Under the pieces are notes generated by a model, which saw nothing but the letters and a program-made list of their open reading frames with translations, did not search any database and was not told the origin of the DNA. From Polyangiales bacterium (GTDB taxonomy: Bacteria; Myxococcota_A; Polyangia; Polyangiales; Ga0077539), in NCBI GenBank assembly GCA_041389825.1, contig JAWKRC010000007.1, positions 61,093-125,092 of the forward strand: a DNA stretch of 64,000 bases, read 5' to 3'. Shown in pieces: positions 1,774 to 50,525 of this stretch; position 1 is the stretch's first letter; each line of letters opens with the position of its first letter. A program made the translations under genes and the position numbers.

Positions 1774-2318
1774 GCGAGGGCGACCGCGCCGCCGCGGTGG
1801 TCGAGCGACTTCGCGCCGAGGGAGAGGGCCTCTACGCGGTGCTCGACGCCGCCCGCGACGACCACGTGCTCGCGGCCATCTCCCGCTCGGGGGAGCGCTT
1901 CCGATCGCTCTACGAGGGCTGGCAGGGCGACGGCCTCGCCGACGTGGCCCCGTACCTCGTCGAGCTCCCCTCGGGCAGCGCCTTCGTCGATCGGCTGGTG
2001 CGCGAGGGCTGGGGCGAGTCGTGGGGGATCTTCCTCGTGACGCCCGAGGATTTCTTCTCCGTGCGACGTCACCTCCGGCGCTTCCTCCGCGTGGTCGACC
2101 ACGACGGCAAGCGCTTGCTCTTCCGCTACTACGACCCGCGGGTGATGCGCGCGTGGCTGCCCACCTGCACGCCCGACGAGACCCGCGCCTTCTTCGGGAG
2201 CGCCTCGGCCTTCATCACCGAGGGCCGCCGCGGAGCGACCTTCTTGCGCTTCACGCCTGGGCCCGAGGGGGCCGAGGTCGAGACCTTCCCACTGCCTGAC
2301 GAGAGCCCCGAGCCATGA
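1770..2318 (+). CDS. DUF4123-family protein (T6SS effector adaptor/chaperone, Tap/Tec-like).
   Basis: Carries LYAVLDAARD...ADVAPYLVEL...WG.FLVT...HLRRFLRV...LLFRYYDPRVMRAWLP...FFG signatures. GTG 1770 overlaps the PAAR stop. The stop overlaps the next ATG (ATGA at 2315-2318). Confidence 0.75.
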   Translation: MSEGDRAAAVVERLRAEGEGLYAVLDAARDDHVLAAISRSGERFRSLYEGWQGDGLADVAPYLVELPSGSAFVDRLVREGWGESWGIFLVTPEDFFSVRRHLRRFLRVVDHDGKRLLFRYYDPRVMRAWLPTCTPDETRAFFGSASAFITEGRRGATFLRFTPGPEGAEVETFPLPDESPEP

Positions 2319-3205
2319 CCGCGCTGTCGCTCCGCCTGACCATCCTCACCGGCCCGCACTCGGGCCACGTCGTCGACGTGCCCGCGGGCGCGCCCCGCAC
2401 CTTCGGCCGCGGCGCCGCGAGCGACGTGCAGCTCCTCGACGAGGCGATGTCCGAGGTGCACTTCGCGCTGCACCTCGACGACGCGGGCGCGGTGCAGGTG
2501 CGCGACCTCTCGGGCGGAGGCACCACGCTCAACGACCGCGGCGTGACCGACGGCGCCGCGCGCGACGGCGACCACCTCAGCGCGGGCGCGACGCGCTTCT
2601 CCATCGCGGTGGTGTCCTCCGACGGCCCCGTGGTCGAAGACGTCGACGAGCTCTCGCCCGAGCTGGTCGCCGCGGCGATGCAGCGGAGCGCGCCCGACTG
2701 CGCGCGCTGGGCGCTCCAGTCCGAAGACGGCTCGCACTACGCGCTGGTCGACGTGGCGAACGACCCCGAGCTCCTTCGCCTCTTCGAGGCGGGCGGCGAG
2801 AGCTACTGCGCCCTCGACGAGACCCGCGACCCCGACGACCTCGGCGAGACCGCCCCCGTGCTCGCCTACCTCCCCGTGGGGACGGAGTTCCTCGCGCAGG
2901 TCTTCGACGAGTGCTGGTCGATGGGCAACGCGGTCTTCTTCGCGAGCGACCGGCCCTTCATCGAGGTCTACGACCACGTCATCCGCCAGCTCACCTGGGA
3001 GGAGGACGGCCGCATCGGGGGCCTGCGCTTCTGGCTCCCGCGGGTGCTCGCGGCGCAGCTCCCGGGCACCGACGCCGAGCGCGCGGCGGCCTTCTTCGGT
3101 CCGGTGCGGGCGTTCCTCGTCGAGAGCGAAGACGGCCGCGAGGCGCTGCGCTTCTCGCTAGAGGGCGGGGCCGTGGTGCAGCGGCGGATCGCGCTGCAGC
3201 TCTGA
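2315..3205 (+). CDS. FHA domain fused to a second DUF4123 domain.
   Basis: N-terminal FHA signature (RTFGRG..SDVQL...HF.L......V.DLSGGGTTLN). The C-terminal half repeats the DUF4123 pattern (HYALVDVANDPELL...APVLAYLPVG...LRFWLPRVLAAQLP...FFGPVRAF). Confidence 0.75.
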   Translation: MTALSLRLTILTGPHSGHVVDVPAGAPRTFGRGAASDVQLLDEAMSEVHFALHLDDAGAVQVRDLSGGGTTLNDRGVTDGAARDGDHLSAGATRFSIAVVSSDGPVVEDVDELSPELVAAAMQRSAPDCARWALQSEDGSHYALVDVANDPELLRLFEAGGESYCALDETRDPDDLGETAPVLAYLPVGTEFLAQVFDECWSMGNAVFFASDRPFIEVYDHVIRQLTWEEDGRIGGLRFWLPRVLAAQLPGTDAERAAAFFGPVRAFLVESEDGREALRFSLEGGAVVQRRIALQL

Positions 3206-3385
3206 GCGGGGCGCCCACACCCCCACGGTCTCGCGCATCGGCGACGGGTCGAACAATCTCGACCAGAGCGCGTCGCCGTCGTCGGTGAGCTCCGCGAGGA
3301 AGGCCGCGTCGAGCGTGACCCACTTCATCTTCCGCAGGAGCCCCTGCGTGGCCTTCACGAAGGTCTGGAGCCTCGGGTCTTCGAC
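3158..3385 (-). CDS. Small hypothetical protein convergent with the DUF4123 genes. Its start is uncertain. The open frame with coding-like GC3 runs up to about 3597.
   Basis: The minus-strand frame shows about 90% G/C at codon position 3 over about 146 codons. The ATG at 3358 gives 66 aa (MKWVTLDAAFLAELTDDGDALWSRLFDPSPMRETVGVWAP...). An in-frame GTG lies at 3385. There is no canonical start further upstream. Confidence 0.3.
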   Translation of the reverse strand, partial: VEDPRLQTFVKATQGLLRKMKWVTLDAAFLAELTDDGDALWSRLFDPSPMRETVGVWAPRSELQRDPPLHHGPAL

Positions 3386-3946
3386 GCCCGCGAGGCGCGT
3401 CTCTTCGACCCACGCGCCGTCGTCGTGAGTCTCTCCGCGGAGGCGGCACTCTTGAAGCGTGGCGAAGCGGCCGACGCGCGAAGCCCACGCGGGCGCGTCT
3501 CGTCGGGCGACGCGGGATTCACGACACCGATTTCGCGCGTCTCGGTACAGGCGGTCGTCGGTGGTGGCGACGAGGCCAGAGCCATCGCGCGCCCTCTCCG
3601 TCGACCCCTAGACGGCCCGAGCGGGGAGGCCTCGGCGCAGGCGGTCGCGAAGCGGTCGAGCTCGGCGTCGTCCGGTGCGCGTCGGGTCGAGGCGCGGCCC
3701 GCGAGGCGCGCGAGGCGCGGTGCCGCTCGCGCTCACGGGTGATGCCGCAGGTGCCGCCGCAGGTGGACATCGGTGGAGCATCCCCAGAGGTCGCGGAGGA
3801 GCAAGGCGCACCCGACGCGGTTCGGGTGGGGACGCGGGCGTTCCGGCCGTCACCGTCTTCGCGTGGGAGTGATCCCACCAGGACGCGCGGACCAGGCCGC
3901 CGACGCGCCCGTGAGCGCCCGTGACCGCGCAGAGAGGAGATCCACC

Positions 3947-4318
3947 GTGTCGACGCACCCATCGAAGCTCTCTGGCGCCCTGATCCTCGCGTTCGCGCTC
4001 GCAGGAGCGCGCTGCGGAGACTCGCAGTCGGTCACCGCCGACTCGGGGGTCGCCTGCACCGCGCCCACCTACCGCTGGAACGAGTCGACGAACGCCGCCG
4101 GTCCGAGCCGATGCACCTCCGACTGCCAGTGCGACGGCGCGCGTCGGTGCGACACCGACGGCAACTGCGACGGCACCGCCCGCGACTGCCTCGCCCCCTC
4201 GTGGTCGTGGGACGAGTCCACGAACGACGGCGGGCCGAACCGCTGCGACGACGCCTGCCAGTGCGACGGCGCCCGCACCTGCAGCGCCGCGGGCGTCTGT
4301 CAGGGCACCGCGCGCTGA
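3947..4318 (+). CDS. Small secreted cysteine-rich protein with an internal duplication (12 Cys).
   Basis: GTG 3947 is preceded by a GGAGA RBS. A signal peptide (SKLSGALILAFALAGA) is present. Two copies of Y/W.W.ESTN..GP.RC...CQCDGAR.C are present. Confidence 0.55.
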   Translation: MSTHPSKLSGALILAFALAGARCGDSQSVTADSGVACTAPTYRWNESTNAAGPSRCTSDCQCDGARRCDTDGNCDGTARDCLAPSWSWDESTNDGGPNRCDDACQCDGARTCSAAGVCQGTAR

Positions 4319-4383
4319 CCTCGCGGGCGTGGGTCGCGTGGCCCTTGACCTCGGGCGCGCGGCGTTGCCCCATCGCCCACCCC

Positions 4384-5325
4384 ATGGAGATCGCGCTCGT
4401 CATGGGCTTCCCCGCGTCGGGGAAGTCCACCTGGACCCAGAAGAACCTCCCCTCGCACCGTCGCGTGAACCGCGACCTCGACGGAGGCAGCCTCGACGAC
4501 CTCCTCCCGCTCATCGAGCGCGCCCTCGACGCGGGGGAGAGCGTGGTGCTCGACAACACCTACGCCACCGTCGACACCCGCAGGCCCGTGCTCGATCTCG
4601 CGAAGCGCCGCGGGGTGCCCGTGCGCTGCGTGTGGCTCGACGGCTCCATCGAAGACGCCCAGCGCAACGCCGCGATCCGGCTCGTGCAGAAGCACGGCAG
4701 GCTCCCCTCGCCCGCCGAGATCAAATCGCTCGGCAAGAACGACCCCAACACCTTTCCGCCCGCGCCGCTCTTCGCGTACCGCAAGCGCTTCGAGAAGCCC
4801 ACCGCGGCCGAGGGCTTCGCCGCCATCGACCGCGTCGCCTTCGCGCGCGAGCTGCACGCGGGGGTGGGCGATCGTCGCGCGGTGATCCTCGACTACGACG
4901 GCACGCTGCGCGCCACGAAGAGCGGAGAGAAATACCCGCGCAGCCCCGACGACATCGCGATCCTCCCCGGGCGCGCCGAGAAGCTCGCGAGGCTCAAGGC
5001 CGACGGATGGCTCCTCTTCGGCGTCTCGAACCAGGGCGACGTCGCGCGCGGAAAGCTCTCCGCGGACGACGCCCGCGCCTGCTTTGCGCGCACCAACGAG
5101 CTCCTCGGCCACGACATCGAGGTGCGCTTCTGCCCGCACGACCCCGCGCCCATCTCGTGCTGGTGCCGTAAGCCCATGCCCGGCTTCGGCGTCGAGATCG
5201 CGGTGCTCCACGGCCTCGACCCCGCGCGCTGCGTGATGGTCGGCGACCAGACCACCGACGAGACCTTCGCGAAGCGAGCGGGCTTCGCCTTCGAGCACGC
5301 CGACCGCTTCTTCTCGACGCCGTAG
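4384..5325 (+). CDS. Bifunctional polynucleotide 5'-kinase / 3'-phosphatase-like protein. It has an N-terminal P-loop kinase and a C-terminal HAD phosphatase, the same order as T4 Pnk.
   Basis: Walker A GFPASGKST is present. HAD motifs are ILDYDGTL (DxDGT), GVSNQ and MVGDQTTDE. The CWCRKPMPGFG motif is the C.CRKP.PG hallmark of PNKP/GmhB-type 3'-phosphatases. Confidence 0.8.
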   Translation: MEIALVMGFPASGKSTWTQKNLPSHRRVNRDLDGGSLDDLLPLIERALDAGESVVLDNTYATVDTRRPVLDLAKRRGVPVRCVWLDGSIEDAQRNAAIRLVQKHGRLPSPAEIKSLGKNDPNTFPPAPLFAYRKRFEKPTAAEGFAAIDRVAFARELHAGVGDRRAVILDYDGTLRATKSGEKYPRSPDDIAILPGRAEKLARLKADGWLLFGVSNQGDVARGKLSADDARACFARTNELLGHDIEVRFCPHDPAPISCWCRKPMPGFGVEIAVLHGLDPARCVMVGDQTTDETFAKRAGFAFEHADRFFSTP

Positions 5326-5366
5326 CGCCCCGCGCCGCGGCGCTTCGGGTAGCCTCGCGCTCGCGC

Positions 5367-5843
5367 ATGAGCACGCCGCTCCGCGAGCGACCCTACGACT
5401 GGATCTTCGTCGGGGTCTTCGGCCTCCTGACCCCGACCACCGTGGTCTTCGACCTGCTCCCGCTCCTCGGCGTGGGGTGGGCGCGGCGCGCGATCGAGGT
5501 CGGCTACGCGCCCTGCGACCCGATGTTCGTCGCGATGCCGCCGTTCCTGCGCGTGGGCGTGGTCGCCTCGGCGGTGCTCTGGTGGCCGCTATACCTCTAC
5601 TTCGCCTGGGGCTTCGTGAAGGGGCGCAACGCGATCCGCACCGCCGCGCTCCTCTACGCGGGGGCCCTGACCATGGCGATGACCATGATCTTCGCCGAGG
5701 CGCTGTTCAGCGCCGTCCCCGGGTGGCGCACGCCGGCGCCCGCGACCTTCATCGCGGCCAACGCCGCGTACCTCGTGCTGCCGCTCGCGCTCGCGTGGCG
5801 CATGCGCTCGCCCTTCCCCTTCGGCGGAGACCAGCCCGGGTAG
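5367..5843 (+). CDS. Four-TM membrane protein, EXPERA/TMEM97-like.
   Basis: 158 aa with four hydrophobic helices. Size and topology resemble the EXPERA family. The ATG start is present. Confidence 0.5.
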   Translation: MSTPLRERPYDWIFVGVFGLLTPTTVVFDLLPLLGVGWARRAIEVGYAPCDPMFVAMPPFLRVGVVASAVLWWPLYLYFAWGFVKGRNAIRTAALLYAGALTMAMTMIFAEALFSAVPGWRTPAPATFIAANAAYLVLPLALAWRMRSPFPFGGDQPG

Positions 5844-5846
5844 CGC

Positions 5847-7537
5847 CTACGCGCTGCCGAGCGTGCCGAACCACCGCCGCGGCCCCTGCCGCACGACGCT
5901 CGCCGCCACCAGCAGCACCAAGAGCGCCGCGCTCACCCACTCCACGGGGGTGTGCGCGTGGCGCGCGAGGCCGTGGATCTCGGGCACGCTCCCCCGCGGG
6001 ATCAGCGCGTTGGCGACCCAGCCCGCCGCCGCGCCCACCAGCACCAGCACCACGGGCAGCGTGCGCGCCGCCCTCGGCCCCGCGTGCTCGCGGAAGGCTC
6101 CGATGGTCACGGGCCCGGAGCCCCCGGCCACCAGCACCCACGCGAGCGCCGCGCCCACCGACAGGCCCTTGTGCACCAGCACCGCCGCGACGGGCAGCGC
6201 CGCGAGGAGCCCGCTCGAACGCAACCCCCGCGAGCGCGCCCAGGAGCACGTCCCACCGGCCGCAGAGCGGCGCGAGGAGCGAGGGGTCGAGGGCCGCCTC
6301 GAGCACCGCCGCGGCCACGAAGCCGAGCGACAGCCGCAGCGCCGAGGTGTCGAGCCGGTCGTGCGCCGCGACCGTCGCGACCGGGCCGTCGCTCTCTTCT
6401 TCGTCGTGGTGGTGGTGATGGTGGTGGCCGTGGTCGTGGGTCACGCCCGTGTTCGCGGGCGCGCGGCGCTCCCTGCGCAGCGCGAGCGCGAGGCCCGCGG
6501 CGCCCACCGCCACCGCCGCGACCGCGGCCCCGGCGAAGCGCCATCCCCATCAATCGCGCGCCCAGCGTGAGCGACACCGGGTCGAGCGCGACCCGCGCCG
6601 CCGCCCACGCGCCGAGCGCCGCCACGGGGAGGCCCTCGCGCAGCATCCCGTGGAGGCCCTCGGGCTCGCGCAGCCCTCGCAAGGTCGACGCGAACAGGCC
6701 GTGCCCCGTCGTCGGCGCGACGCGGCGCAGGAGCGCGAGGAGCGCGACGCCCACGAGCACCGCGGGCGCGCACTCGACGAAGAGGGCCGTGAGCGCGTCG
6801 GCGGCGTTGAGCTCCGCGGCCTGCGAGCGCAGGAGCACGCTGTCGGGGTCGGGCACCCACACCACCAGCGCCGCGCCGAAGAGGAAGGCCGCGCCCGAGA
6901 GCGCGCGACCGCGCACCGTGGTGGGCGGCGGCGAGTGACTGTGCAGCACGAGCCGCAGGATCGCCCCCGCCGCGAGGGCCACCACCGCGTCGAGGAAGGC
7001 GTCAGGGACGTGCGTGAGGAGCAGCCGACCTCCGACGGCGCCGATCACCGTCGCGGCGCCCACGGCGCCGAGGCGGAGGGCCGTGCCGCGCCAGCCGAAG
7101 ATGGGCAGGAGCGCCGAGGTCATGAACAGCCCCTCGGGCAGCCGGTGCAGGAGCAGCGCCGCCACGAGGCCCGGACGGAAGCCCGCGCCCGACGAGGCCG
7201 TGGCCACCGCGAGGCCCGCGCCGTCGCTCAGCGCGTGCAGGGCGAGCGCGGGGACGACCACCTGCGCGCCCACGCGCGCGCCGCCGCGGTGGAGCTTGCG
7301 GTCGGCGCCCCAGAGGAGCGCGTAGCCCGCGAGCACGAGGAGGATGCCCGTCACGGCGCCGACGCCCTCGACGACGTGCGGCACGAGGCGCAGCGCGAGG
7401 ATGGTGGGCACCACGCCGAGGGTGAAGCCCTCGATGGCGGCGGAGGGCAGGGCGCGGCCGCGGCCGAGGGCGACCAGGGCGGGGCCCACCGCGAGGCCCG
7501 CCAGCGAGAGCGCCAGCGACGTGACGAGGAGGCTCAC
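5847..7537 (-). CDS. His-rich polytopic membrane transporter, ZupT/ZIP-like. It lies immediately downstream of the Zur-like regulator. The frame breaks at about 6535 and about 6235, so the model is stitched over three frames.
   Basis: LHRLPEGLF matches the ZIP TM4 HN.PEG motif. A HDHGHHHHHHHDEEESD tract is present. Coding-like segments lie in frames 7537-6540, 6548-6250 and 6224-5847. R/G-rich junk follows in each abandoned frame. Confidence 0.4.
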
Positions 7538-7553: not shown

Positions 7554-8009
7554 CTACTCGCAGTTGTCGCAGCGGCCCTTCACCTGGATCTCGACGTCGC
7601 CCCCGCGCAGCGACCGCGGCGCGCCGCGGGTGGCGTGGACCTCGATGATCTCCTCGGGAAGGCAGGTGACGTCGCCGCACGCGTCGCAGACGAAGTGGGG
7701 GTGAGGCTCGTTGCCGTGCGCGTCGCTCGCCTCGCCCTTCACCTCGAAGCGCCACACGTGGTCGCCCAGGTCGGTGCGACGGAGCAGCCCCGCGTCGGTG
7801 AGGTCGATGAGGTTGCGGTAGATCGTCGCCCGGTCCCACCCGTCGGGGGCGAGCGCCTCGAGAGCCTCCGGGTGGCTCACCGGCGAGGTCGCGCGCTCGA
7901 GGTGCTCGAGCACCGCCACGCGCGGGGCCGTGACGCGCAGGCCCGCCGCGCGGATCCGTTCTCTCAAGGCCCCGACCTCGGTGACCCTCTGCCTCGACGC
8001 GCGCGTCAT
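7554..8009 (-). CDS. Fur-family metalloregulator, probably Zur.
   Basis: 151 aa with a winged-helix N-terminus. Two CxxC pairs are present (CDACGDVTC ... CDNC). It sits directly upstream of, and co-directional with, the ZIP-like transporter. Confidence 0.85.
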   Translation of the reverse strand: MTRASRQRVTEVGALRERIRAAGLRVTAPRVAVLEHLERATSPVSHPEALEALAPDGWDRATIYRNLIDLTDAGLLRRTDLGDHVWRFEVKGEASDAHGNEPHPHFVCDACGDVTCLPEEIIEVHATRGAPRSLRGGDVEIQVKGRCDNCE

Positions 8010-9513: not shown

Positions 9514-10296
9514 ATGGAAGCGCCCGCGCACGAGCTCGTTGGGGAGGGGCCCACGGTGGTCCTCCTTCACTCGTTCCCCCTCGACCGCGGGATGTGGACG
9601 CGGCAGCTCGGCGCGCTCTCGGCCGCGGGCTTCAGGGTCGTCGCGCCCGACCTCCCGGGCTTCGGCGCGACCCCCACGCCCACGGGAGACGCGCCCTCCC
9701 TCGACGCCTACGTCGCCTCGGTGGTCGCGCTCCTCGACGCGATCGACGCGCGACGTCCGCTCGTGCTCGGGCTCTCGCTCGGCGGCTACGTCGCCCTTCG
9801 CCTCGCGGCGCTCCACCCCGACCGCGTGGGGGCCCTCGTCCTCGCCGACACGCGCGCGGCGGCAGACAACCCCGAGGTGCGCGCGAGCCGCGTGGTGAAC
9901 CTCTCGCTGGTGCGCTCGAAGGGGGCGGGCGCGCTGATCCGCAAGATGCTCCCGATGGTGCTCTCGGGTTCGGCCCCCGAGTCGGTGCAGTCCGCGGTGA
10001 CCGCTCTCGGTGAGAAGCAGTCCGCCGAGGGGGTGTCGTACGCGCTCCTCGCGATGCGCGACCGCCACGACGGCACCGACGCGCTGCCCTCGATCAAGGC
10101 CCCGACGCTCTGCCTCGTGGGAGACGGCGACAAGGTCACGCCCCCCGACGAGATGCGCGCGATGGCCGACGCGATCCCCGGCGCGCGCTACGTCGAGCTC
10201 GCCGGGGCGGGGCACCTGTCGAACTTCGACGCGCCCGAGGGCTTCGACCGCGAGGTCGTTCGGTTCGCGAACGACCACCGCGCAGACTTCACCTGA
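9514..10296 (+). CDS. Alpha/beta hydrolase fold protein (3-oxoadipate enol-lactonase-like).
   Basis: HSFPLD ... GLSLGGYVAL nucleophile elbow (GxSxG). 260 aa. Confidence 0.85.
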   Translation: MEAPAHELVGEGPTVVLLHSFPLDRGMWTRQLGALSAAGFRVVAPDLPGFGATPTPTGDAPSLDAYVASVVALLDAIDARRPLVLGLSLGGYVALRLAALHPDRVGALVLADTRAAADNPEVRASRVVNLSLVRSKGAGALIRKMLPMVLSGSAPESVQSAVTALGEKQSAEGVSYALLAMRDRHDGTDALPSIKAPTLCLVGDGDKVTPPDEMRAMADAIPGARYVELAGAGHLSNFDAPEGFDREVVRFANDHRADFT

Positions 10297-11620
10297 TCGG
10301 GCGGGCGCGGTCGGCGATGAAGCGCTCGAGGGCCGCTCGCTCCTCGGACGTGATCCCGTAGAGCGCGCACACCCGCGCCTCCACCGCGGCGACGCGCTCC
10401 GGCGTCGGGCCGTCGATGGTGAGGGACCGCACCATCTCCGTGACGCCGTCGCGGAGGGAGTCGTCGGGAGGCGCGGGCAGCGCGCGGAGGTGCGCGACCT
10501 TCACCTGCGGGAAGGCGGCCTGACGTCCGTCGCGGCGAGAGGCGAGGTGCAGCGCGCGGAGGGGAGCGCTGTTGAGGCAGGCCACGGCGAGCGCGGGGTC
10601 GGCCCCGTCGAGGGCGAAGCCCGCGAGGAGCGAGTTGCGGAAGGGCGACGGGTCACGGTGGAGCGCCGCGATGGGGAAGGCCGCCGTCTGCCGCACCACG
10701 AAGGCCACGGCGCGCCACGCCTCGGGAGGGCGCATCCGCGCGCGCGCGGCGCGCAGCGCGACGGGGTCGGGGTCGAGCCACCGACGCGCGGGGCCGACGC
10801 GGTACGGGGTCACGTCCTTTCCCTCGCGTAAGGGGACGGTGTGGCGCTCCGAGGGCGCGTCGGCGATCAGCGCGCGCACCGCGGGGCTGGTCTGCACGCC
10901 CACGTCGCTGAAGGTCTCAGGCGCGAAGCGAGGGAGGGCCGCGAGGCGCGCGAGGCACCGCGGGGGTTCGACCACCACGGCCTCGACGCCCGCGCGTCGG
11001 CGCTCGCGCAGCGTCCACGGTCGCGGGTCGGGGGGCGCGTCGCGGCGCGCCCCGAGCATGGCGAAGCAGGGCTGCACCACACCCTCGAAGACGTCGGGGC
11101 CGAACTCCTCCATGGGCTCGGCCAGCGCGACCCGGGCGCTCACCGCGCGACGCACGGGCGCGTAGCCGTCGAGGTCGGCCATCGCCGACGGGAGCAGCAA
11201 GGCCACCACGCCGCCCGGCGTGAGGAGCGCGGTGGCGCGGTCGGCGAAGGCCCCGTGCAGCGTGGGGTATCCGCCGAAGCCCTCGTAGCGCGCGCGCAGC
11301 GCTTCGCGGCGCGCGAGGGAGATGGGGCGCGAGGCGCGACCCGCGTAGGCGACCCAGGGGGGGTTGCCCACCACGAGGTCGGCCGGGTCGAGCGCGAGGT
11401 CGAGGGCGTCGCCCACCGTCACCGCAGAGAGCGCCGCGGGCGGGGGCTCCCGCGCGCCCGAGGCGAGCCAGAGCGAGAGGCGCGCGGCGTGGGCGGCCTC
11501 GGGGTCGAGGTCGACGCCGCGGAGGCGCGCGAGGGCATCGTTCGTAGACCCAACGATCTCCGCGAGGGCGCGCATCGCCGCGACGAGGAAGACGCCCGCG
11601 CCGCAGGCCGGGTCGAGCAC
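10289..11620 (-). CDS. N6-adenine DNA methyltransferase (gamma class, Eco57I/TaqI-like). The true N-terminus extends upstream to about 11850 but has no canonical start codon.
   Basis: Motif I is VLDPACGAGVFL. Motif IV is GNPPW. Motif X (GRWFTPRTIAAHLV) lies upstream of the first GTG (11620), in an open frame with high GC3 that runs to a stop at about 11933 without ATG/GTG/TTG. Confidence 0.7.
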   Translation of the reverse strand: MLDPACGAGVFLVAAMRALAEIVGSTNDALARLRGVDLDPEAAHAARLSLWLASGAREPPPAALSAVTVGDALDLALDPADLVVGNPPWVAYAGRASRPISLARREALRARYEGFGGYPTLHGAFADRATALLTPGGVVALLLPSAMADLDGYAPVRRAVSARVALAEPMEEFGPDVFEGVVQPCFAMLGARRDAPPDPRPWTLRERRRAGVEAVVVEPPRCLARLAALPRFAPETFSDVGVQTSPAVRALIADAPSERHTVPLREGKDVTPYRVGPARRWLDPDPVALRAARARMRPPEAWRAVAFVVRQTAAFPIAALHRDPSPFRNSLLAGFALDGADPALAVACLNSAPLRALHLASRRDGRQAAFPQVKVAHLRALPAPPDDSLRDGVTEMVRSLTIDGPTPERVAAVEARVCALYGITSEERAALERFIADRARPIR

Positions 11621-11971: not shown

Positions 11972-12277
11972 TCACGGGGCGCGGCGCTGCTTGCGCTGGA
12001 GCGAGGCGATGCGGGCGTCGATGGCGTCGAGGCGCGTGGTGCGAAAGGCCCGGTCGAGCAGGCGAGAGCCGATGAAGAGGAAGGCCACCGCGAAGAGGAA
12101 GCCCCACTGCCGCGGCAGGCCGACGGCTTCTTGCAGGAGCACGCCGAGGCCGAGGCCCAGGCCGAAGGCGGCGAGGGTCACGGGGATGAGCACGTTGGTG
12201 CGGTGGGCCTCCCACCAGGTGATGCGCTTGAAGAGGCGCTCGCGCTCGTCGCGCAGGCGGGAGAGTTCGTCGTCCAT
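11972..12277 (-). CDS. Small membrane protein (N-terminal coiled segment plus two TM helices).
   Basis: 101 aa. Coding-like codon usage. Hydrophobic segments are VLIPVTLAAFGLGLGLGVLL and FLFAVAFLFIG. Confidence 0.55.
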   Translation of the reverse strand: MDDELSRLRDERERLFKRITWWEAHRTNVLIPVTLAAFGLGLGLGVLLQEAVGLPRQWGFLFAVAFLFIGSRLLDRAFRTTRLDAIDARIASLQRKQRRAP

Positions 12278-12323
12278 CGCGTCGTGGCCTTCGGGGCCGC
12301 GAGCATAGGCGCGCTCGGGGGGA

Positions 12324-13634
12324 TCAGCGAGCGCGGTCGATGCACCGCCGGGTGCTCTGCCCCGCGGCGTTGGCGAGGGCCCCCGCGGGCCACGCGAGCA
12401 CGAAGTTGAAGCACATCTCGTCTTCGGTGCGCTCGCCGAAGAAGACCGTCGCGCTGCTGACGTTGTCGTAGCGGCAGACCGTGCGGAGGCGGTCTCCGGG
12501 CATGATGACCAGGTCGGAGGGTCGGCTCACCTGCGCGTCGAAGGAGTAGTCGGTGACGTCGGTGAGCGTGTCCATCCGGGCGGCGGAGCCTCCGCGGTGG
12601 ACCTCGCTGCGCAGGGCCGTCCCGTTGCGGTGCATGTGCGCGGTCGACCCGAGCACGTGGATGGGCTCGGTGGCGGCGGGCGTGCACCAGCCCTCGGTCT
12701 CGTAGCCCGTCGACCGCGGAGGGATCGCGATGTTGAGCGTGCCGAGCCAGTGGACGGCCGCGGTGTGCGGGCGGGGCGCGTCGGTGGTGCACATCTCGAT
12801 GCCGCTCGCGTCGTCGGCCGCGTCGAGGGTGTTGTTCCAGTAGTGGGTCTGGAGGATGAACCACTCGCCCTCGCCGGGGAGCTCGAGGCCCACGTCGGAG
12901 GGGAGCACCGTGCCCTGGTTGCCGGGCGCCCATCCCGCGATGAAGCGCGCGTCGCGGGGCATGTTGCCGTCGCAGTCGAAGACCTCTCCCGCGGCGGGGC
13001 GAGACGCGGTGGAGAAGAGGATGAGGTGGTGCAGCACCCTGGCGTTGTCGACGCGCGCGGCGAAGGCCGTGGCCTGCTGCGCGCCGCGGAAGGGCGACTG
13101 GAACGCGAAGCAGCGGTTGAGGTTCCCCGCGGCGCCGGGGACGGTGTAGCGGTCGGCGACGGTGGGGCCGTGCGCGAGGAAGGCGCGGCGCTCGCTCGGC
13201 GCGCAGGGGAGCCGGTCGGCGGGGCTCTCGACCGCGTCGGGCCCCGTCATGCTCCCGCAGTCGGAGCCCGTACAGCCGGGCGCGCCCGCGGCGATCCAGC
13301 GGTCGAAGGTCGCGAGGTCAGCCTCGGACAAGCGCGCGGGCGGCATCGGCCGCACGGGGTCGTGGACGCGCTCGCCCATGAGGTTCCACACCTGCCGGGC
13401 GGGGGCGCTCGCGGCGGGACGTCGCGTGTCGTCCCATCGGGCGAGCGACATCGGCGCGCCGTAGCGCGGCGTGGCCGCGTGGCACGAGACGCAGTTGCCC
13501 TCGATGATCCGCGCGATCTCGAGCGGGTACGACATCCCGCTGCCGGGGTCGGTCGGCGCCGCGCCGTCGCCCGAGCAGCCCAGGGTGGTCGACGCCGCGA
13601 GCACGATCGCGGCGCGGAGGAAATCGTTTCGCAT
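12324..13634 (-). CDS. Lipoprotein combining a c-type heme motif with a copper type II ascorbate-dependent monooxygenase-like (PHM/DBH-like) domain.
   Basis: The signal is MRNDFLRAAIVLAASTTLGC (lipobox). A CVSCH (CxxCH) motif is present. The CuH-like site is HH...(63 aa)...H (VLHHLILF ... LQTHYW). The CuM-like site is HMH...(about 75 aa)...M in a DEMCF context (cf. PHM DEMCN). Confidence 0.7.
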   Translation of the reverse strand: MRNDFLRAAIVLAASTTLGCSGDGAAPTDPGSGMSYPLEIARIIEGNCVSCHAATPRYGAPMSLARWDDTRRPAASAPARQVWNLMGERVHDPVRPMPPARLSEADLATFDRWIAAGAPGCTGSDCGSMTGPDAVESPADRLPCAPSERRAFLAHGPTVADRYTVPGAAGNLNRCFAFQSPFRGAQQATAFAARVDNARVLHHLILFSTASRPAAGEVFDCDGNMPRDARFIAGWAPGNQGTVLPSDVGLELPGEGEWFILQTHYWNNTLDAADDASGIEMCTTDAPRPHTAAVHWLGTLNIAIPPRSTGYETEGWCTPAATEPIHVLGSTAHMHRNGTALRSEVHRGGSAARMDTLTDVTDYSFDAQVSRPSDLVIMPGDRLRTVCRYDNVSSATVFFGERTEDEMCFNFVLAWPAGALANAAGQSTRRCIDRAR

Positions 13635-13660
13635 CGTCGGCCTCATGGGTGAAGGGGGCG

Positions 13661-14320
13661 TCATTGCACGCGGCGAAGGTCGAAGATCAGCGCGGCCTGG
13701 AGCGGGGCCGCGCCGAGGTAGACGAAGAGCCGCGCGCGGTCGGCCGCGTCGCGGGAGAAGGCGAAGCCCGAGGGGCCGGCCATCGCGCCCATGCCGAGGG
13801 TGCCGCTCATCGTGGTGCACTCGGGGGTGAGGGTGAGGCGCTCGCCCTGCACGGTGAACGCGCCGCGGCCGCCGAGGCGCGAGGGCCGCGGCACGGGCCC
13901 GGCCATGACGGTGTTCACGCGGATCACCAGGTCGGAGAGGAGCCGATAGCGACCGGCGGAGAAGTCTCCCCACGCGACGCCGCTGAGCTCGGAGCCGCTC
14001 TCGTCGAGCTGACCGCGCGCGACCTCGGGGAACCACAGGGTCGCCCCGTCGGCCACCCAGCGCCCCTCGGGGTCGCCGCCCGAGGGCGTGGGGATCACGG
14101 CGCCTGCGTCTCCGCCCGCGATGCGGACCGCGCCCGTGAAGGTGGGCGTGGTGGGCGGATCGCCGAGGTCGCACGCGGCGGCGTCGGCGCCCGCGTCGGT
14201 CTCGGCCGCGACGTCGCTCGCGACGTCAGTGAGGGCGCCCGCGTCGGAGGGCGCGTTGGAGTCGTCGCCGCACGCGCCGAGGAGGAGCGCGAGAGGAACC
14301 CACCGAACGGATCGCGTCAC
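13661..14320 (-). CDS. Lipoprotein of unknown function, directly upstream of the Cu-monooxygenase-like gene.
   Basis: The GTG start gives VTRSVRWVPLALLLGACGDD (lipobox). About 220 aa. The upstream part of the ORF is Arg-rich junk. Confidence 0.55.
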   Translation of the reverse strand: MTRSVRWVPLALLLGACGDDSNAPSDAGALTDVASDVAAETDAGADAAACDLGDPPTTPTFTGAVRIAGGDAGAVIPTPSGGDPEGRWVADGATLWFPEVARGQLDESGSELSGVAWGDFSAGRYRLLSDLVIRVNTVMAGPVPRPSRLGGRGAFTVQGERLTLTPECTTMSGTLGMGAMAGPSGFAFSRDAADRARLFVYLGAAPLQAALIFDLRRVQ

Positions 14321-46438: not shown

Positions 46439-47390
46439 TCTCGCGGGCGAAGACGCGGAGCGCGGCGGCGGTGGCCCTCTCGCTCCTCCTCGCGGGCGGC
46501 GCGGCCGGCGCGCAGTCCGCGCGGGAGACCTACGCCCGCGGTCTGGAGTCGTTCCGCAGCCAGCGCTACGCCGAGGCCCTCCTCGCGTTCGAGTCGTCGT
46601 ACCGCGCCGAGCCTCGCCCCGAGGTGCTCTACAACATCGGCCTCGTGCAGCGCGCGCTGGGCCGCTACCTCGACGCGATCGACTCGTGGGAGCGCTTCCT
46701 CGCGGGCGACACGTCGAGCGTCGGCGCGGCGGTCACGCAGCAAGCGCGCGACGGCGTGACGGCGATGCGGTCGATGGTGGCGACGGTGACGCTCCGCGCG
46801 CAGCCCGAGTGCGAGGAGGTGCTCGTCGACGGCCGCCCCGCGCGGGTCGAGTCGAGCGCGATCCGCGTCGACCCAGGTCAGCGTGTGCTGGAGTGCCGCG
46901 CCGCGGGCCACGCGCCCTCTCGGCAGGACCTCCGCCTCGGACTGGGTGAGCGCCGCGAGGTCGTCCTCGCCCTGCGCCCGCTCACCGCCGCGTTGACCAC
47001 CGACCCGCGGAGGGTCGCCGACCCGCAGGGAGTGCCGCCGACCCGCGCTCCCGCGAGGGCGGGTCTGCCGTGGTGGACGTGGGGCGGCGTGGGCCTGACC
47101 GTCCTCGCGACGGGCGCCGCCGTCGGCCTCGGCCTCGCGGCGCAGTCGTCGGAGTCGACTACCTCTCGCGCTGCGTCGACCAACGCCCGCCCGAGGCGGG
47201 GTGCGCCGCGCTCCAGGGAGAGCGCCAGTCCGAGCTCGACGGCATGGCGCTCGGCGTGAATCTCTTGTGGGGCGCGGCGGCGGTCGGCGCCGCCATCGCG
47301 ATCACGGGCGTGGTGGTGGGCGTCACGCGTCGCCCCGCGTCGCGGGTCGCGATCTCACCCGGCGGGCGCGGGCTGGAGGTCCGGTGGTGA
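46435..47390 (+). CDS. Exported TPR-like / PEGA-domain protein with a C-terminal TM segment. The frame breaks near 47140.
   Basis: GTG overlapping the previous stop. A signal peptide is present. [20 protein letters not shown] (TPR-like). A PEGA-like beta segment is present. A TM helix is present. The C-terminus ...[13 protein letters not shown] continues in a neighbouring frame. Confidence 0.5.
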
Positions 47391-48919
47391 AGCGGTGGCC
47401 GCTCGCGGTCTCCCTCTGCGCGGGCTGCGCGTTCACGCTCCCTCCGCCGTCGTCGCGCGACCTCGACGCCAGCGCTGACGGCGCGGTCTCCCTCGACGTG
47501 GGCGGGCGCGACGTCGTGCCTCTCGACGCGGGCAGCGACCTCGGCCCGATGGACGCGGGCACGGACACGGGCGCGACCGACGCGGCGGCCGACGACGCGA
47601 TCGCGGACGCGGGCGTCGCGGATGTCTCTGCGATCGACGTCGACCGAGAGGAAGCGAGCGCTCCCGACGTCTCACCGAGCGACTCCGGGCCGAGCGACGT
47701 CGGCGAGGTCGACGCGGGCCCCACGGACGTCAGCGAGGTCGACGCGGGGACGTTGGACGTCGGTGAGGTCGACGCTGGTCCCGCCGACGCGGGTCCTGCC
47801 GACAGCGGGCCGACGCCCATCACGGTCGTCGATGTCGACGCGGGCGACGACTTCACCTGCGCGGTCCTCTCGAACGGAGGTCTCTACTGCTGGGGTCACA
47901 ACAACGAGCGTCAGCTCGGCGTCGGCGACGCGACCGACCGTTCGCGCCCCACGCTCGTCACGTCGAGCGAGGCCTTCGTGCGCGTGAGCGCGGGCGGCCA
48001 GCACGGGTGCGCGATCACCGCCAGCGGCGCCCTCTGGTGCTGGGGTCGCAACAACCGCGGTCAGGTCGGCGACGGCACGTTGATGACCCGCGCGACGCCG
48101 GTGCGAGTGTTCACGTCGGGCGTCACCAGCGTCTCCGCGGGCGGGGAGCACACCTGCGCGGTGATGGACGCTCACGTCTACTGCTGGGGCAAGGGCGACT
48201 CCGGCCAGGTCGGGGACGGCCTCGTCACCGACCAGACCTCTCCCACGCTCGTGAGCGCGTTCACCGCGCTCGACGTCTCCGCGGGCGAGGCGCACTCCTG
48301 CGCGCGGGTGACCGGCGTGACGGGGTGCACGGGCTCCCCGGCGTCGCTCCTCTGCTGGGGGAAGAACGACCGCTCGCAGGTCGGCGCCGGGACGCTCGCC
48401 ACGTACAACTCGCCCACCCCCATCGCGCCCGCGGGCACCTACTGCCACAGCGTTCGGAGCGTGAGCGCGAACCGCAACAACACCTGCGCGGCCTGGAACG
48501 ACACGCTCTACTGCTGGGGCGAGAACGGCGACGGACAGCTCGGGATCGGCAACACCACCGAGTCGCTCCCCACGGCGGTGAGCTTCGGCGCCGGAGCGAG
48601 CGTGAGCCAGCCCACCCCGTCGGTCGGCGGGATGTTCGCCTTCGCCATGGTCACCGAGGCCGGGATCGTCCGCGCCTGGAGCTGGGGAAAGAACATGGAA
48701 GGTCAGCTCGCCATCGGCGCCACCGGCGCGGACCAGCCCTCTCCCGGCCGCGCGACAGGCCTCGCCTCGCTCAACGTCGTGCAGCTCTCGGCCGGCGCGA
48801 ACCACGCGTGCGCCCGCGACGCGACCGGTTCGCTCTACTGCTGGGGCGCTGGCGGCAGCGGCCGGCTCGGCACCGGGTCCGCGACGAACAGCGCCGTCCC
48901 CACGCGCGTGTCGTTCTGA
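47384..48919 (+). CDS. RCC1-repeat (beta-propeller) lipoprotein with an acidic DVxEVDAGP N-terminal repeat region.
   Basis: LCAGC lipobox. Repeated YCWG.N..GQLG / LWCWGRNNRGQVG blades. Confidence 0.8.
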   Translation: MVKRWPLAVSLCAGCAFTLPPPSSRDLDASADGAVSLDVGGRDVVPLDAGSDLGPMDAGTDTGATDAAADDAIADAGVADVSAIDVDREEASAPDVSPSDSGPSDVGEVDAGPTDVSEVDAGTLDVGEVDAGPADAGPADSGPTPITVVDVDAGDDFTCAVLSNGGLYCWGHNNERQLGVGDATDRSRPTLVTSSEAFVRVSAGGQHGCAITASGALWCWGRNNRGQVGDGTLMTRATPVRVFTSGVTSVSAGGEHTCAVMDAHVYCWGKGDSGQVGDGLVTDQTSPTLVSAFTALDVSAGEAHSCARVTGVTGCTGSPASLLCWGKNDRSQVGAGTLATYNSPTPIAPAGTYCHSVRSVSANRNNTCAAWNDTLYCWGENGDGQLGIGNTTESLPTAVSFGAGASVSQPTPSVGGMFAFAMVTEAGIVRAWSWGKNMEGQLAIGATGADQPSPGRATGLASLNVVQLSAGANHACARDATGSLYCWGAGGSGRLGTGSATNSAVPTRVSF

Positions 48920-48944
48920 GGCGACTCGGGCTTACCATCGCCGC

Positions 48945-50525
48945 GTGCAAGACCTCCGCGCGCGCCTCGAGGCCCTGGTCGACCGGCTCGGTCTCCGCCC
49001 CCCCGCCGACCCCGAGGTCGACGCCGAGGTCGCGGCCTGCGTCGCGAACCCCGGCCTCGACGACGCCCTTCGCGACGAGACCGACATCGCGTACGTCACC
49101 GTCGACAACGACGGCTCGCGCGACCTCGACCAGGCCCTGCACGTCGCCCGCGACGGCGACGCCTTCGTGCTCCGCTACGCCCTCGCCGACGCGAGCCACT
49201 TCGTGCGCCCCGGCACGGCCCTGTGGCGCCGCGCCCTCGCGATGGGGTCGAGCTACTACCTCCCGGGCTACGCGATCCCGATGCTCCCGCCCGCGCTCAG
49301 CGAGGGCATCGTCTCGCTCAACCCCGACGGCCCGCGCCGCGCGGTGGTGTTCAAGCTCCGCGTCGAGGCCGACGGTCGCTGCGTCGCGCGAGAGGTGTAC
49401 CGCGCGAAGGTCGCGAGCCGCGCGAAGCTCTCGTACACGGGCGTGCAGCGGTGGTTCGACGCGGGCTGCGAGGGCGACCCGCGCTGCGACGCGCCCGCGG
49501 TGAAGTCGTCGCTCCTCGCGCTGCGCGGCCTCGGGCTCGCGCGGATGAACGAGGCCGAGGCCCGCGGGGTGATGTCGCTGCAGCGCTACGAGGCCGAGGT
49601 CGACCTCGACCCCGACGACCCGAAGCGGCTCCTCGCGGTGACGCGCGACCGCAACGACGTCGAGCGCTGGAACGAGCAGGTCTCGCTCCTGTGCAACATC
49701 GAGGGCGCGGCGCTCCTGCACGCGATGGGGGTCGACGACGACGAGGTGCAGCCCGTGTTCCGCGTGCACCTTCCGCCCATCGACGACCGGCTCGGAGAGC
49801 TGGAGGCCATCCTCGGCGCGCTCGCCGAGCGGCGCGCCCTCGGCGCGGGCTGGAGCTGGCGCGCGGCCCACGACGACCTCGCCGCGTGGGTGTCGTCGCT
49901 CTCGACGAAGGGCGCGCCGCAGCGGCTCACGCAGGCCGTGCAGCGGCAGGTGCGGTACACGTACCGGGCGTCGGAGTTCCAGGCGAGGAGCGGGCCGCAC
50001 CACGCGCTCGGCGTCGACGGCTACGCGCGGATGTCGGCCCCGATGCGCGAGGTGGTCGGGGTCTTCTCGCACAAGGAGCTCCTCGAGGGCCTCGGGCTCG
50101 TGCCCCCGCAGCCCCGCGACGAGGACCTCGCGGCCCGCGAGGCGGTGATCGCGTCGGCCAACGAGGCGCGGCGACGTCAGGCCGAGGTCGACAAGGCCGT
50201 CGACCTCATGGTGCTCGACCAGCTCCTCGGAGACGACCTCGCGCGCGACCCCGACGCGCGGCCGTGGCGCGTGGGCACGGTGGTGGGCGTGCGGGCCACG
50301 CGGGTCTACGTCGCCCTCGACGGCTGCGCGGTCGACCTCAAGGTCTACGTCGAAGACATCGAGGCGCTCTACGGCGCGCGCTACCGCGACGACCGACGCG
50401 CGGCGCTGGTGCCCGACGCGCCCGGCGCGCCCGCCTTCGTGATGGGCGACGCCGTCGAGGCGAGGGTCGTGGCGTGGGACGAGCGCCGCGCGCGCTTCGT
50501 GATGGCGCTCCGCCCCGCTGCGTAG
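48945..50525 (+). CDS. RNase II / RNB-family 3'-5' exoribonuclease-like protein.
   Basis: TVDNDGSRDLDQALHV catalytic Asp cluster. 526 aa. Confidence 0.75.
   Translation: MQDLRARLEALVDRLGLRPPADPEVDAEVAACVANPGLDDALRDETDIAYVTVDNDGSRDLDQALHVARDGDAFVLRYALADASHFVRPGTALWRRALAMGSSYYLPGYAIPMLPPALSEGIVSLNPDGPRRAVVFKLRVEADGRCVAREVYRAKVASRAKLSYTGVQRWFDAGCEGDPRCDAPAVKSSLLALRGLGLARMNEAEARGVMSLQRYEAEVDLDPDDPKRLLAVTRDRNDVERWNEQVSLLCNIEGAALLHAMGVDDDEVQPVFRVHLPPIDDRLGELEAILGALAERRALGAGWSWRAAHDDLAAWVSSLSTKGAPQRLTQAVQRQVRYTYRASEFQARSGPHHALGVDGYARMSAPMREVVGVFSHKELLEGLGLVPPQPRDEDLAAREAVIASANEARRRQAEVDKAVDLMVLDQLLGDDLARDPDARPWRVGTVVGVRATRVYVALDGCAVDLKVYVEDIEALYGARYRDDRRAALVPDAPGAPAFVMGDAVEARVVAWDERRARFVMALRPAA

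Follow-up and report, generated by a model that had tools for sequence, protein, structure and literature searches.

Nucleic-acid breaks that carry 5'-OH and 3'-phosphate ends are healed by enzymes known in detail from T4, from eukaryotes (PNKP), and from the bacterial Pnkp-Hen1 systems. A survey of jumbo phages (Iyer et al. 2021, PMC7824862) further described 'PKN-HAD' phosphatases, which usually have a polynucleotide kinase fused at the N-terminus, and placed them in phage RNA repair together with ATP-grasp RNA ligases. Here we analyze a gene for a bifunctional kinase-HAD protein located at positions 4384..5325 (+) of a 64,000-nucleotide stretch of DNA from a Polyangiales bacterium (GCA_041389825.1, contig JAWKRC010000007.1, positions 61,093 to 125,092 of the forward strand), hereafter the window. 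The protein is probably a stand-alone nucleic-acid 5'-kinase/3'-phosphatase, that is, an end-healing enzyme. It belongs to a family that combines the domain order of T4 polynucleotide kinase (PNK) with a kinase resembling that of eukaryotic PNKP and a HAD-IIIA phosphatase bearing a predicted zinc cap, a combination that we did not find described in the accessible literature and regard as previously undescribed.

The gene is complete. Its frame, 4384-5325 (+), translates without interruption into 313 aa followed by a stop, and although an alternative in-frame ATG lies upstream at 4111, we place the start at 4384 because about 120 homologs of ~312 aa begin at the equivalent of MEIALVMG. The GC content at third codon positions (GC3) of this frame is 0.91, in a window with an overall GC content of 73.9%. 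Homologs of ~312 aa share from 96% down to 48% identity over 97-100% of the length, the closest with E values of 1e-133 to 1e-203, and an AlphaFold2 model of the protein has a mean predicted local distance difference test score (pLDDT) of 93.7. The first-pass annotation of this DNA, made from the letters alone, had proposed an open reading frame (ORF) here encoding an N-terminal P-loop kinase followed by a C-terminal HAD phosphatase. The uninterrupted codons, homolog-supported start, and GC3 show that the ORF is real, and Pfam, Foldseek, and hhalign agree on the domain order. All five motifs that it quoted, GFPASGKST (aa 8-16), DYDGT (170-174), SNQ (215-217), CWCRKPMPG (259-267), and GDQTTD (287-292), are found and fall in family columns with full or near-full invariance. 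Given these E values and the model confidence, the motif set and the homology lie far beyond chance. Residues called invariant below are invariant in the family alignment (A1); other positions are given as ≥90% conserved.

The N-terminal P-loop kinase domain (aa 1 to ~158; 4384..4857, +) is assigned by Pfam only to the generic AAA_33 family (6.7e-14). The kinase part of TIGR01663 (PNK-3'Pase) spans aa 2-154, the mouse PNKP kinase aligns with aa 2-159 at 58.7 bits when the single sequence is searched against solved structures, and the top Foldseek match of the model is mPNKP (1.9e-12, 35% identity over 159 columns). A 26-member family profile searched against the same structures retrieves mouse PNKP at 3.9e-42 with both domains covered, followed by the Mucorales RNA 5'-OH kinase (1.5e-11), T4 Pnk (9.3e-8), Pnkp1 (2.2e-5), and C. 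thermocellum Pnk (CthPnk, 2e-4). Across the single-sequence and profile searches, matches to aa 1-160 among solved structures are exclusively polynucleotide or RNA 5'-kinases, with no sugar or metabolite kinase (e.g. PFK2 or gluconokinase) at E≤0.01. Viral structure matches are likewise all PNK-type, comprising PseT, Pnk, baculovirus NRK-1, and a giant-virus "polynucleotide phosphatase/kinase". The polynucleotide-kinase affinity first proposed for this domain is borne out by these matches, on which the kinase is best read as PNK-specific and not as a generic AAA_33 protein.

Conserved residues of the kinase domain can be matched to those of PNKP throughout. The P-loop, or Walker A motif, GFPASGKST (4405..4431, +) aligns with GFPGAGKST of mouse PNKP, with G13 invariant and K14 ≥90% conserved. 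Within the N29-R30-D31 motif (4468..4476, +), R30 is invariant and N29 and D31 are ≥90% conserved; D31 aligns with the catalytic Asp of mouse PNKP VNRD and with D36 of T4-type Pnkp, which we take to be the equivalent of T4 Asp35, presumably a catalytic residue. D57-N58-T59 (4552..4560, +) forms a DxTN-type Walker B common to PNKP (VIDNT) and T4-type Pnkp (IIDN), and the lid segment E90-D-A-Q93-R-N95-A-A-I-R99 (4651..4680, +) aligns with IEQARHNNRFR of mouse PNKP, its E90, Q93, and N95 being invariant and R99 ≥90% conserved. The C-terminal kinase motif YRKxFExPTxxEGF is common to PNKP and the family and is conserved, while a KxDPNxFPP insert at aa 118-126 is specific to the family. The catalytic residues of the T4 Pnkp kinase established by mutagenesis are Lys15, Ser16, Asp35, Arg38, and Arg126; the equivalents of Lys15, Ser16, and Asp35 are present as K14, S15, and D31, and lid arginines (R94/R99) are also present, but the Arg38 position aligns with G34.

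The C-terminal HAD-IIIA phosphatase domain (aa ~163-313; 4870..5322, +) passes the TIGR01662 HAD-SF-IIIA cut-off (69.2 bits vs 44.6), with the DxDGT, S/T, K, and GDxxxD motifs all invariant, and passes the gathering score of PF08645 (PNK3P) by a modest margin (28.2 bits vs 22, aa 168-310). The protein reaches no ortholog cut-off for GmhB, HisB, or PNKP. It scores 119.7 against 502.8 for PNK-3'Pase (TIGR01663), 34.7 against 107.65 for DNA-3'-Pase, 75.4 against 178 bits for GmhB (PRK08942, NF006506), 75.5 against 84.15 bits for the TIGR01656 histidinol-phosphatase domain, and 44.5 against 149.6 and 17.8 against 140 for the remaining GmhB/HisB-N models, TIGR00213 and TIGR01261.

This scoring is chimeric because the first half of the domain is PNKP-like and the second half GmhB-like. 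HAD motif I and the loop that follows it, D170-Y-D172-G-T-L-R-A-T-K-S-G-E-K-Y184-P185 (4891..4938, +), match D170-L-D172-GTLITTRSGKVF184-P185 of mouse PNKP position by position in the pattern DxDGTLxxTxSGxx[FY]P, with D170, D172, L175, R176, and P185 invariant, whereas the GmhB loop is 2-3 residues shorter and lacks SG..[FY]P. HAD motif II, S215-N-Q (5026..5034, +), aligns with the TNQ of both PNKP and GmhB, both S215 and N216 being invariant. The second half of the domain, FC250-P-H252-DPAPIS-C259-W-C261-RKPMPG, corresponds to GmhB FCPH...C.CRKPMPG and has no counterpart in mouse PNKP. It comprises a predicted zinc cap aligned with the CPH...CxC of GmhB, in which C250-P-H252 and C259-W-C261 are separated by six residues (5131..5166, +) and C250, P251, H252, C259, and C261 are invariant, together with HAD motif III, R262-K263-P264-M-P-G267 (5167..5184, +), in which K263, P264, and G267 are invariant and whose RKP is common to GmhB and presumably also to PNKP. 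HAD motif IV, G287-D288-Q-T-T-D292 (5242..5259, +), completes the set with G287, D288, and D292 invariant.

According to PMC9798254, the CxH...CxC zinc cap is confined to GmhB and HisB-N and has a spacer of 5-12 residues. The spacer here is 6 residues, compared with 5 in HisB-N and 12 in E. coli GmhB, and we treat CxH...CxC, at the level of sequence, as a putative zinc cap. It follows that CWCRKPMPG cannot serve as the PNK-diagnostic motif for which it was initially taken. It aligns residue by residue with the CxC-RKP of GmhB, includes half of the CxH...CxC cap, and is lacking in mouse PNKP, so that it is better described as a GmhB/HisB-N hallmark joined to the general HAD motif III lysine. 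Some fused members of the family are without the zinc-cap Cys/His residues.

Mapped onto these domains, end healing would proceed in two steps. The N-terminal kinase would phosphorylate a 5'-OH end with the gamma-phosphate of a nucleoside triphosphate (NTP), which K14 and S15 would hold while D31 in the NRD motif served as general base. The HAD phosphatase would remove a 3'-phosphate via an aspartyl-phosphate intermediate on D170, with D172 as acid/base, S215 and K263 binding the phosphate, and D288 and D292 binding Mg2+. Together, the two activities would convert 5'-OH/3'-P breaks into ligatable 5'-P/3'-OH ends. The residue roles are those that we take to hold in PNKP and T4. We infer these activities, like zinc binding and the choice between DNA and RNA, from the domains, residues, fold, distribution, and contexts that the analysis shows.

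The family is large and crosses domains of life. A word-indexed search returned >1,118 relatives, and an exhaustive profile search among 1.84 billion cluster representatives returned 488 representatives (clustering at 50%) at E≤1e-30. Named members are metagenome-assembled genomes (MAGs) of Myxococcales/Myxococcaceae, Acidobacteriota, Anaerovoracaceae, Lokiarchaeota, "Promethearchaeota", and Woesearchaeota, and their proteins carry database names such as "HAD-IIIA family hydrolase", "histidinol-phosphate phosphatase family protein", "oxidoreductase", and "aldo/keto reductase". A search of named-genome contigs, which used the single protein as query, returned only one locus, L009. In IMG/VR, at least 120 viral contigs, mostly of 100-570 kb, carry the gene, and several long contigs with dense, short, unannotated genes also bear it. 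Among 50,697 phage records, tblastn matched only two, LR756511 (595 kb) and LR756500 (462 kb), both from huge uncultured phages, with no match in any T4-like phage. Identity across bacteria, archaea, and phages is 45-66%. A more speculative possibility is that eukaryotic PNKP has its closest relative, and perhaps its origin, in this prokaryotic and viral family, which includes Asgard archaeal MAGs.

To survey gene context, we called ORFs on 169 loci, clustered their neighbors, and annotated the recurrent clusters. The commonest neighbor is a genuine T4-type Pnkp (AAA_33 plus PF25109, 3.3e-49), usually adjacent with a median gap of ~600 bp and found at 28 loci, which represent 8 of 54 lineages. 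Other recurrent neighbors are RlaP (PF10127) and thioredoxin (6 lineages each), Thg1 (5 lineages), an RNA ligase (PF09414), PARP-WGR, and an Rv2179c-like exoribonuclease (4 lineages each), and a T4-Rnl1-type ligase (PF09511; 2 lineages). In loci of ≥15 kb searched with sensitive hidden Markov models (HMMs), an RNA-repair-type neighbor (T4-type Pnkp, RlaP, a PF09414 or PF09511 ligase, or Thg1) lies within 10 kb of the family gene at 30 of 94 loci, or in 14 of 37 lineages, counts that carry no whole-genome background; an earlier count of 17-20 of 77 viral loci became 9 of 44 lineages after dereplication at 70% identity. The paired arrangement is exemplified by phage locus L043, where the two kinase-phosphatases occupy 10001-10930 and 12203-13135, and recurs in L027, L037, L061, L071, and others. 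Clusters like that of L043 often also contain RlaP, two kinds of RNA ligase, Thg1, an RNase T-like exonuclease, and thioredoxin. Chance does not readily explain how close the T4-type paralog lies. A PARP catalytic domain accompanied by WGR and regulatory domains is encoded within 10 kb of the family gene at ten loci, L023 (12273-13562) and nine others, from four lineages of viral or metagenomic origin.

The phage contexts suggest an RNA substrate, while the similarity to PNKP and the PARP-WGR and DNA ligase neighbors suggest a DNA substrate. For either polymer, end healing is supported by the specificity of the kinase, the PNKP-type motif I loop, colinearity with T4 Pnkp, the phage RNA-repair context, a ligase neighbor, and fusions to HNH and NADAR domains. 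The latter belong to a set of rare fusions, comprising an HNH endonuclease, a NADAR domain, and a WD40 propeller (relatives P0130, 427 aa; P0227, 510 aa; and P0124, 818 aa). A nucleic-acid break is further favored as substrate because a kinase and a phosphatase acting on one small molecule would constitute a futile cycle, whereas on a break they would act on different ends.

Several observations weigh against an end-healing role. In the literature searched, we found no member of the family that had been assayed biochemically. An invariant G34 aligns with T4 Arg38, a residue that we take to contact the 5'-nucleotide; the family keeps the invariant R30, as in PNKP. No ligase partner was found within the 64-kb window. 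Ligase, RtcB, Hen1, RlaP, and Thg1 are absent from the 30 annotated window proteins, where Hen1 was sought without a dedicated model, and a six-frame HMM scan of the window detected no RNA ligase, Rnl1, RlaP, Thg1, or PARP, in keeping with the initial remark that no ligase or Hen1 partner is adjacent. The association with RNA repair, although real, is clade-heavy, and the two kinase-phosphatases that stand side by side in huge phages are probably not redundant; their presence in one repair cluster implies different substrates. When the phosphatase domain is searched alone, GmhB scores highest (62 and 59 bits, the former for 4pnh) and PNKP reaches 38 bits over the first half only; the C-terminal half of the phosphatase, with its zinc cap, is of the kind seen in the small-molecule phosphatases GmhB and HisB-N. 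Finally, an N-terminal aldo/keto reductase (AKR; PF00248) precedes the kinase-HAD module in 56 of the 150 best family representatives, which is unexpected in a nucleic-acid enzyme.

The AKR fusions are proteins of 590-1060 aa with the order reductase-kinase-phosphatase, found in Acidobacteriota and other bacteria. Examples are P0129, P0132, P0137, P0145, P0153, P0274, and MEM1178980.1, as well as L118:6677-9019 and L170:10001-12478, and one such fusion lies on a 5.04-Mb contig. The fused domain is an AKR13-like aldehyde reductase, with a match to perakine reductase at 1.6e-26, and the accompanying kinase-HAD modules share 47-51% identity with the query, on a par with phage and archaeal members. 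Neither a conserved ~190-aa region N-terminal to the AKR nor the genes flanking the fusions in L170, L172, and L173 gave informative matches. At L174:117-6165, a 1059-aa AKR-kinase-HAD protein carries a 300-aa C-terminal extension and is followed on the same strand by two genes and then, 1.4 kb downstream, by an ATP-dependent DNA ligase (PF01068 plus PF04679), an arrangement that may be a heal-and-seal operon. On inspection, the last 300 aa of P0137 resembled a primase-polymerase, a reading rejected because Pfam matched nothing there. The 583-aa and 781-aa ORFs in L097 and L118 could be taken for high-GC ORF-calling artifacts, but that of L118 is a genuine AKR fusion; no extra domain was found in L097.

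These fusions suggest either a polyol or sugar-phosphate pathway or a three-step healing of DNA breaks with 5'-aldehyde and 3'-phosphate ends. The former would make the family small-molecule kinase/phosphatases acting on a sugar, polyol, or nucleotide phosphate: the kinase would phosphorylate a metabolite, the zinc-cap phosphatase would dephosphorylate it later, and in a third of relatives an AKR step would come between, in the manner of routes that combine aldose-6-phosphate reductase with a polyol-phosphate phosphatase. The GmhB-like scores, zinc cap, and AKR13-type fusions set out above are all consistent with such a pathway, as are the superposition of the phosphatase on HisB-N/GmhB (Foldseek root-mean-square deviation (rmsd) 1.8-3.2 Å; 1.8-2.4 Å for GmhB alone) and the NAD kinase, NUDIX, or PARP neighbors of some phage loci. 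We nonetheless consider it unlikely. Among solved structures, the kinase matches polynucleotide and RNA kinases solely, the GmhB and HisB cut-offs are missed, the SGxxYP loop is of PNKP type and absent from GmhB, and no lipopolysaccharide (LPS), heptose, or histidine genes occur among the 30 annotated window genes or in the ortholog loci. Moreover, in proteins without an AKR, including the present one and those of phages, a kinase and a phosphatase working on one metabolite would be futile, and the HNH/NADAR fusions and ligase neighborhoods point to nucleic acids.

Enediynes and radiation leave breaks oxidized at C5', whose ends are a nucleoside 5'-aldehyde and a 3'-phosphate. How 5'-aldehyde ends are resolved is 'essentially unknown' according to one review (PMC3825254). 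In the AKR fusions, the reductase could convert the 5'-CHO to a 5'-OH, the kinase could convert the 5'-OH to a 5'-P, and the zinc-cap HAD domain could remove the 3'-P, yielding a ligatable nick. We offer as speculation, and as a rather improbable extension of the end-healing role, that the whole family is dedicated to healing oxidized DNA breaks, with the stand-alone protein forming the two-step core of the pathway.

The genomic setting of the gene raises a different possibility. Upstream of it and on the same strand, Pfam identifies genes for PAAR (1339-1773, +), DUF4123 (~1773-2318, +), and an FHA-DUF4123 fusion (2315-3205, +), followed by a gene for a scytovirin-like, Cys-rich protein of secreted or lipoprotein-like character (3773-4318, +; PF20888, 1e-24); scytovirin represents a cyanobacterial antiviral lectin fold. 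The PAAR/DUF4123 cluster thus ends ~1.2 kb before the kinase-phosphatase gene, with the scytovirin-like gene in between. A functional tie to this type VI secretion cargo, whether as immunity-like repair of ribotoxin-cut RNA or as a secreted effector, would be in line with the shared strand and short distance, with the want of a terminator-like site between them (a promoter and terminator scan of 3000-6200 found nothing but is uninformative at 74% GC), and with the repetition of the arrangement in L009. However, L009 is a close relative whose protein is 88% identical and so provides no independent evidence, and PAAR or DUF4123 neighbors are missing from eleven other high-GC ortholog loci. No effector gene is recognizable directly downstream of the PAAR/DUF4123/FHA-DUF4123 set, where 3205-3773 holds no confident ORF, no nuclease effector was identified in the cluster, and the intervening scytovirin-like gene is of the Sec-type secreted kind. 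PADLOC matched no defense system to the kinase-phosphatase or its neighbors, its sole match being an Eco57I-like methyltransferase at 10289-11620, and 45-66% identity across bacteria, archaea, and phages is unlike that of a fast-evolving effector or immunity gene. Such a tie is therefore very improbable. The PAAR/adaptor genes noted by the first-pass annotation are present, but their adjacency is not conserved beyond L009.

The other bacterial orthologs have no conserved neighbors. Those from high-GC genomes (60-66% identical; L001, L090-L097) lie beside unrelated genes, namely ferrochelatase (three loci), ADH, GNAT, MoxR/transglutaminase, and a group II intron reverse transcriptase. Because PAAR/DUF4123 neighbors accompany the gene only in L009, its position near type VI secretion genes is most likely coincidence, and in the source bacterium it looks like an orphan housekeeping repair gene that is not part of the PAAR/DUF4123 cluster. 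In L091, an ortholog locus on a high-GC metagenome contig, the group II intron reverse transcriptase/maturase (4512-6080) is inserted directly upstream of the ortholog and is absent from the otherwise syntenic L092.

That the C-terminal domain is a true GmhB or HisB-N ortholog fused to a generic AAA_33 kinase, the alternative that the first-pass annotation had itself named, with an LPS context, as one that would refute its reading, scarcely merits belief: its GmhB and TIGR01656 scores and the label 'histidinol-phosphate phosphatase family protein' that JGI gives to relatives speak for it, but both scores lie below their cut-offs, no LPS or histidine genes are nearby, the motif I loop is of PNKP type, and the kinase appears PNK-specific.

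The window contains several further genes of note. Beginning 41 bp past the end of the kinase-phosphatase gene is the gene for a small membrane protein (5367-5843, +; PF05241, 4.7e-10) of the EXPERA/EBP superfamily, whose more familiar members are eukaryotic sterol isomerases. A Fur-family regulator (7554-8009, -) adjoins a ZIP-like membrane protein (6107-7537, -), and the two may be a zinc-uptake pair near the gene for the predicted zinc-cap enzyme. The methyltransferase at 10289-11620 (-) has an Eco57I/MmeI-like N6-adenine methyltransferase domain matched by several PADLOC type II/IIG models and has no obvious nuclease partner. The gene at 12324-14174 (-) encodes both copper type II ascorbate-dependent monooxygenase domains (PHM/DBH-like, PF01082 plus PF03712), which is unusual in bacteria, and the region 47201-50525 (+) encodes an RCC1-repeat protein (six repeats) directly followed by an RNB-domain exoribonuclease.

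The gene in the window is an ordinary orphan member, and its interest lies at the level of the family. In the literature searched, we found no characterized cellular enzyme of bacteria or archaea in which both domains are specifically related to PNKP. If the proposed activity is true, the family would add an end-healing route in bacteria for which Xth/Nfo or LigD-PE is usually assumed to deal with 3'-phosphates, would give a reason for the two different kinase-phosphatases that stand side by side in huge phages, and would bring the GmhB/HisB-N zinc cap into a nucleic-acid enzyme. The AKR fusions, in turn, suggest concretely how 5'-aldehyde DNA ends, whose repair is unsolved, might be mended.

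In chemistry and architecture the family follows known polynucleotide kinase-phosphatases; it is the combination that appears to be new. The huge-phage members share their architecture and context with the PKN-HAD class, although the jumbo-phage survey (PMC7824862) does not tell the zinc-cap, PNKP-like type apart from the T4 type and makes no mention of cellular stand-alone members or AKR fusions. The bacterial Pnkp-Hen1 and Pnkp1-Rnl-Hen1 systems (C. thermocellum Pnkp; PDB 4xrp) have a distantly related N-terminal kinase (E 2e-5 to 2e-4) and presumably the same end-healing purpose, but their phosphatases are dinuclear metallophosphoesterases and not HAD enzymes, and they carry or partner with a ligase and Hen1. 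With its HAD phosphatase and no ligase domain, the protein encoded in the window is distinct from that arrangement, as had been proposed at the outset. GmhB (D,D-heptose 1,7-bisphosphate phosphatase) and HisB-N score highest for the phosphatase alone and share CxH...CxC and CxCRKPxPG with it; they are single-domain proteins or fused to IGPD, never to a PNK kinase, and the motif I loop of GmhB is shorter.

Mammalian PNKP (PDB 1yj5, 3zvl, 3u7e) provides the best match to the kinase by both sequence and structure. The two share the P-loop, VNRD, DNT, lid Arg, and YRKxFExPTxxEGF motifs, and both phosphatases are HAD-IIIA. They differ in that mammalian PNKP has the order FHA-phosphatase-kinase, which is reversed here to kinase-phosphatase without FHA, and in that it has no CxH...CxC zinc cap, leaves the second half of its phosphatase unaligned, and is without the KxDPNxFPP insert. 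Of the features of eukaryotic PNKP, the present protein thus has the kinase motifs and lacks both the FHA architecture and a passing TIGR01663 score.

T4 Pnkp (PseT; PDB 1ltq, 2ia5; PF25109 HAD_PNKP; phrog_505) has the same domain order and a length of ~300 aa, and Foldseek aligns it colinearly over the full length (334-344 columns). With T4-type phage Pnkp, hhalign gives a probability of 99% over 204 colinear columns, from the kinase through HAD motifs I-II, and both the T4-type and the present family are found in phage RNA-repair neighborhoods. T4 Pnkp is without the zinc cap, however, and has Arg38 where the present family has Gly. The initial description of the protein as T4-Pnk-like accordingly stands for domain order and colinearity but not for family membership: PF25109 has no match at E≤0.1 in the 313-aa protein, the single sequence matches T4 Pnk at an insignificant E of 0.35, and phrog_505 yields 36.9 bits with no passing stretch, whereas the T4-type paralog beside the family gene in phage L043 reaches 290.8 bits and itself hits PF25109 at 3.3e-49. 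Because huge phages encode a member of the present family and a T4-type Pnkp side by side, the two are distinct paralogous families, and by its sequence the kinase of the present family appears nearer to eukaryotic PNKP than to T4 Pnkp.

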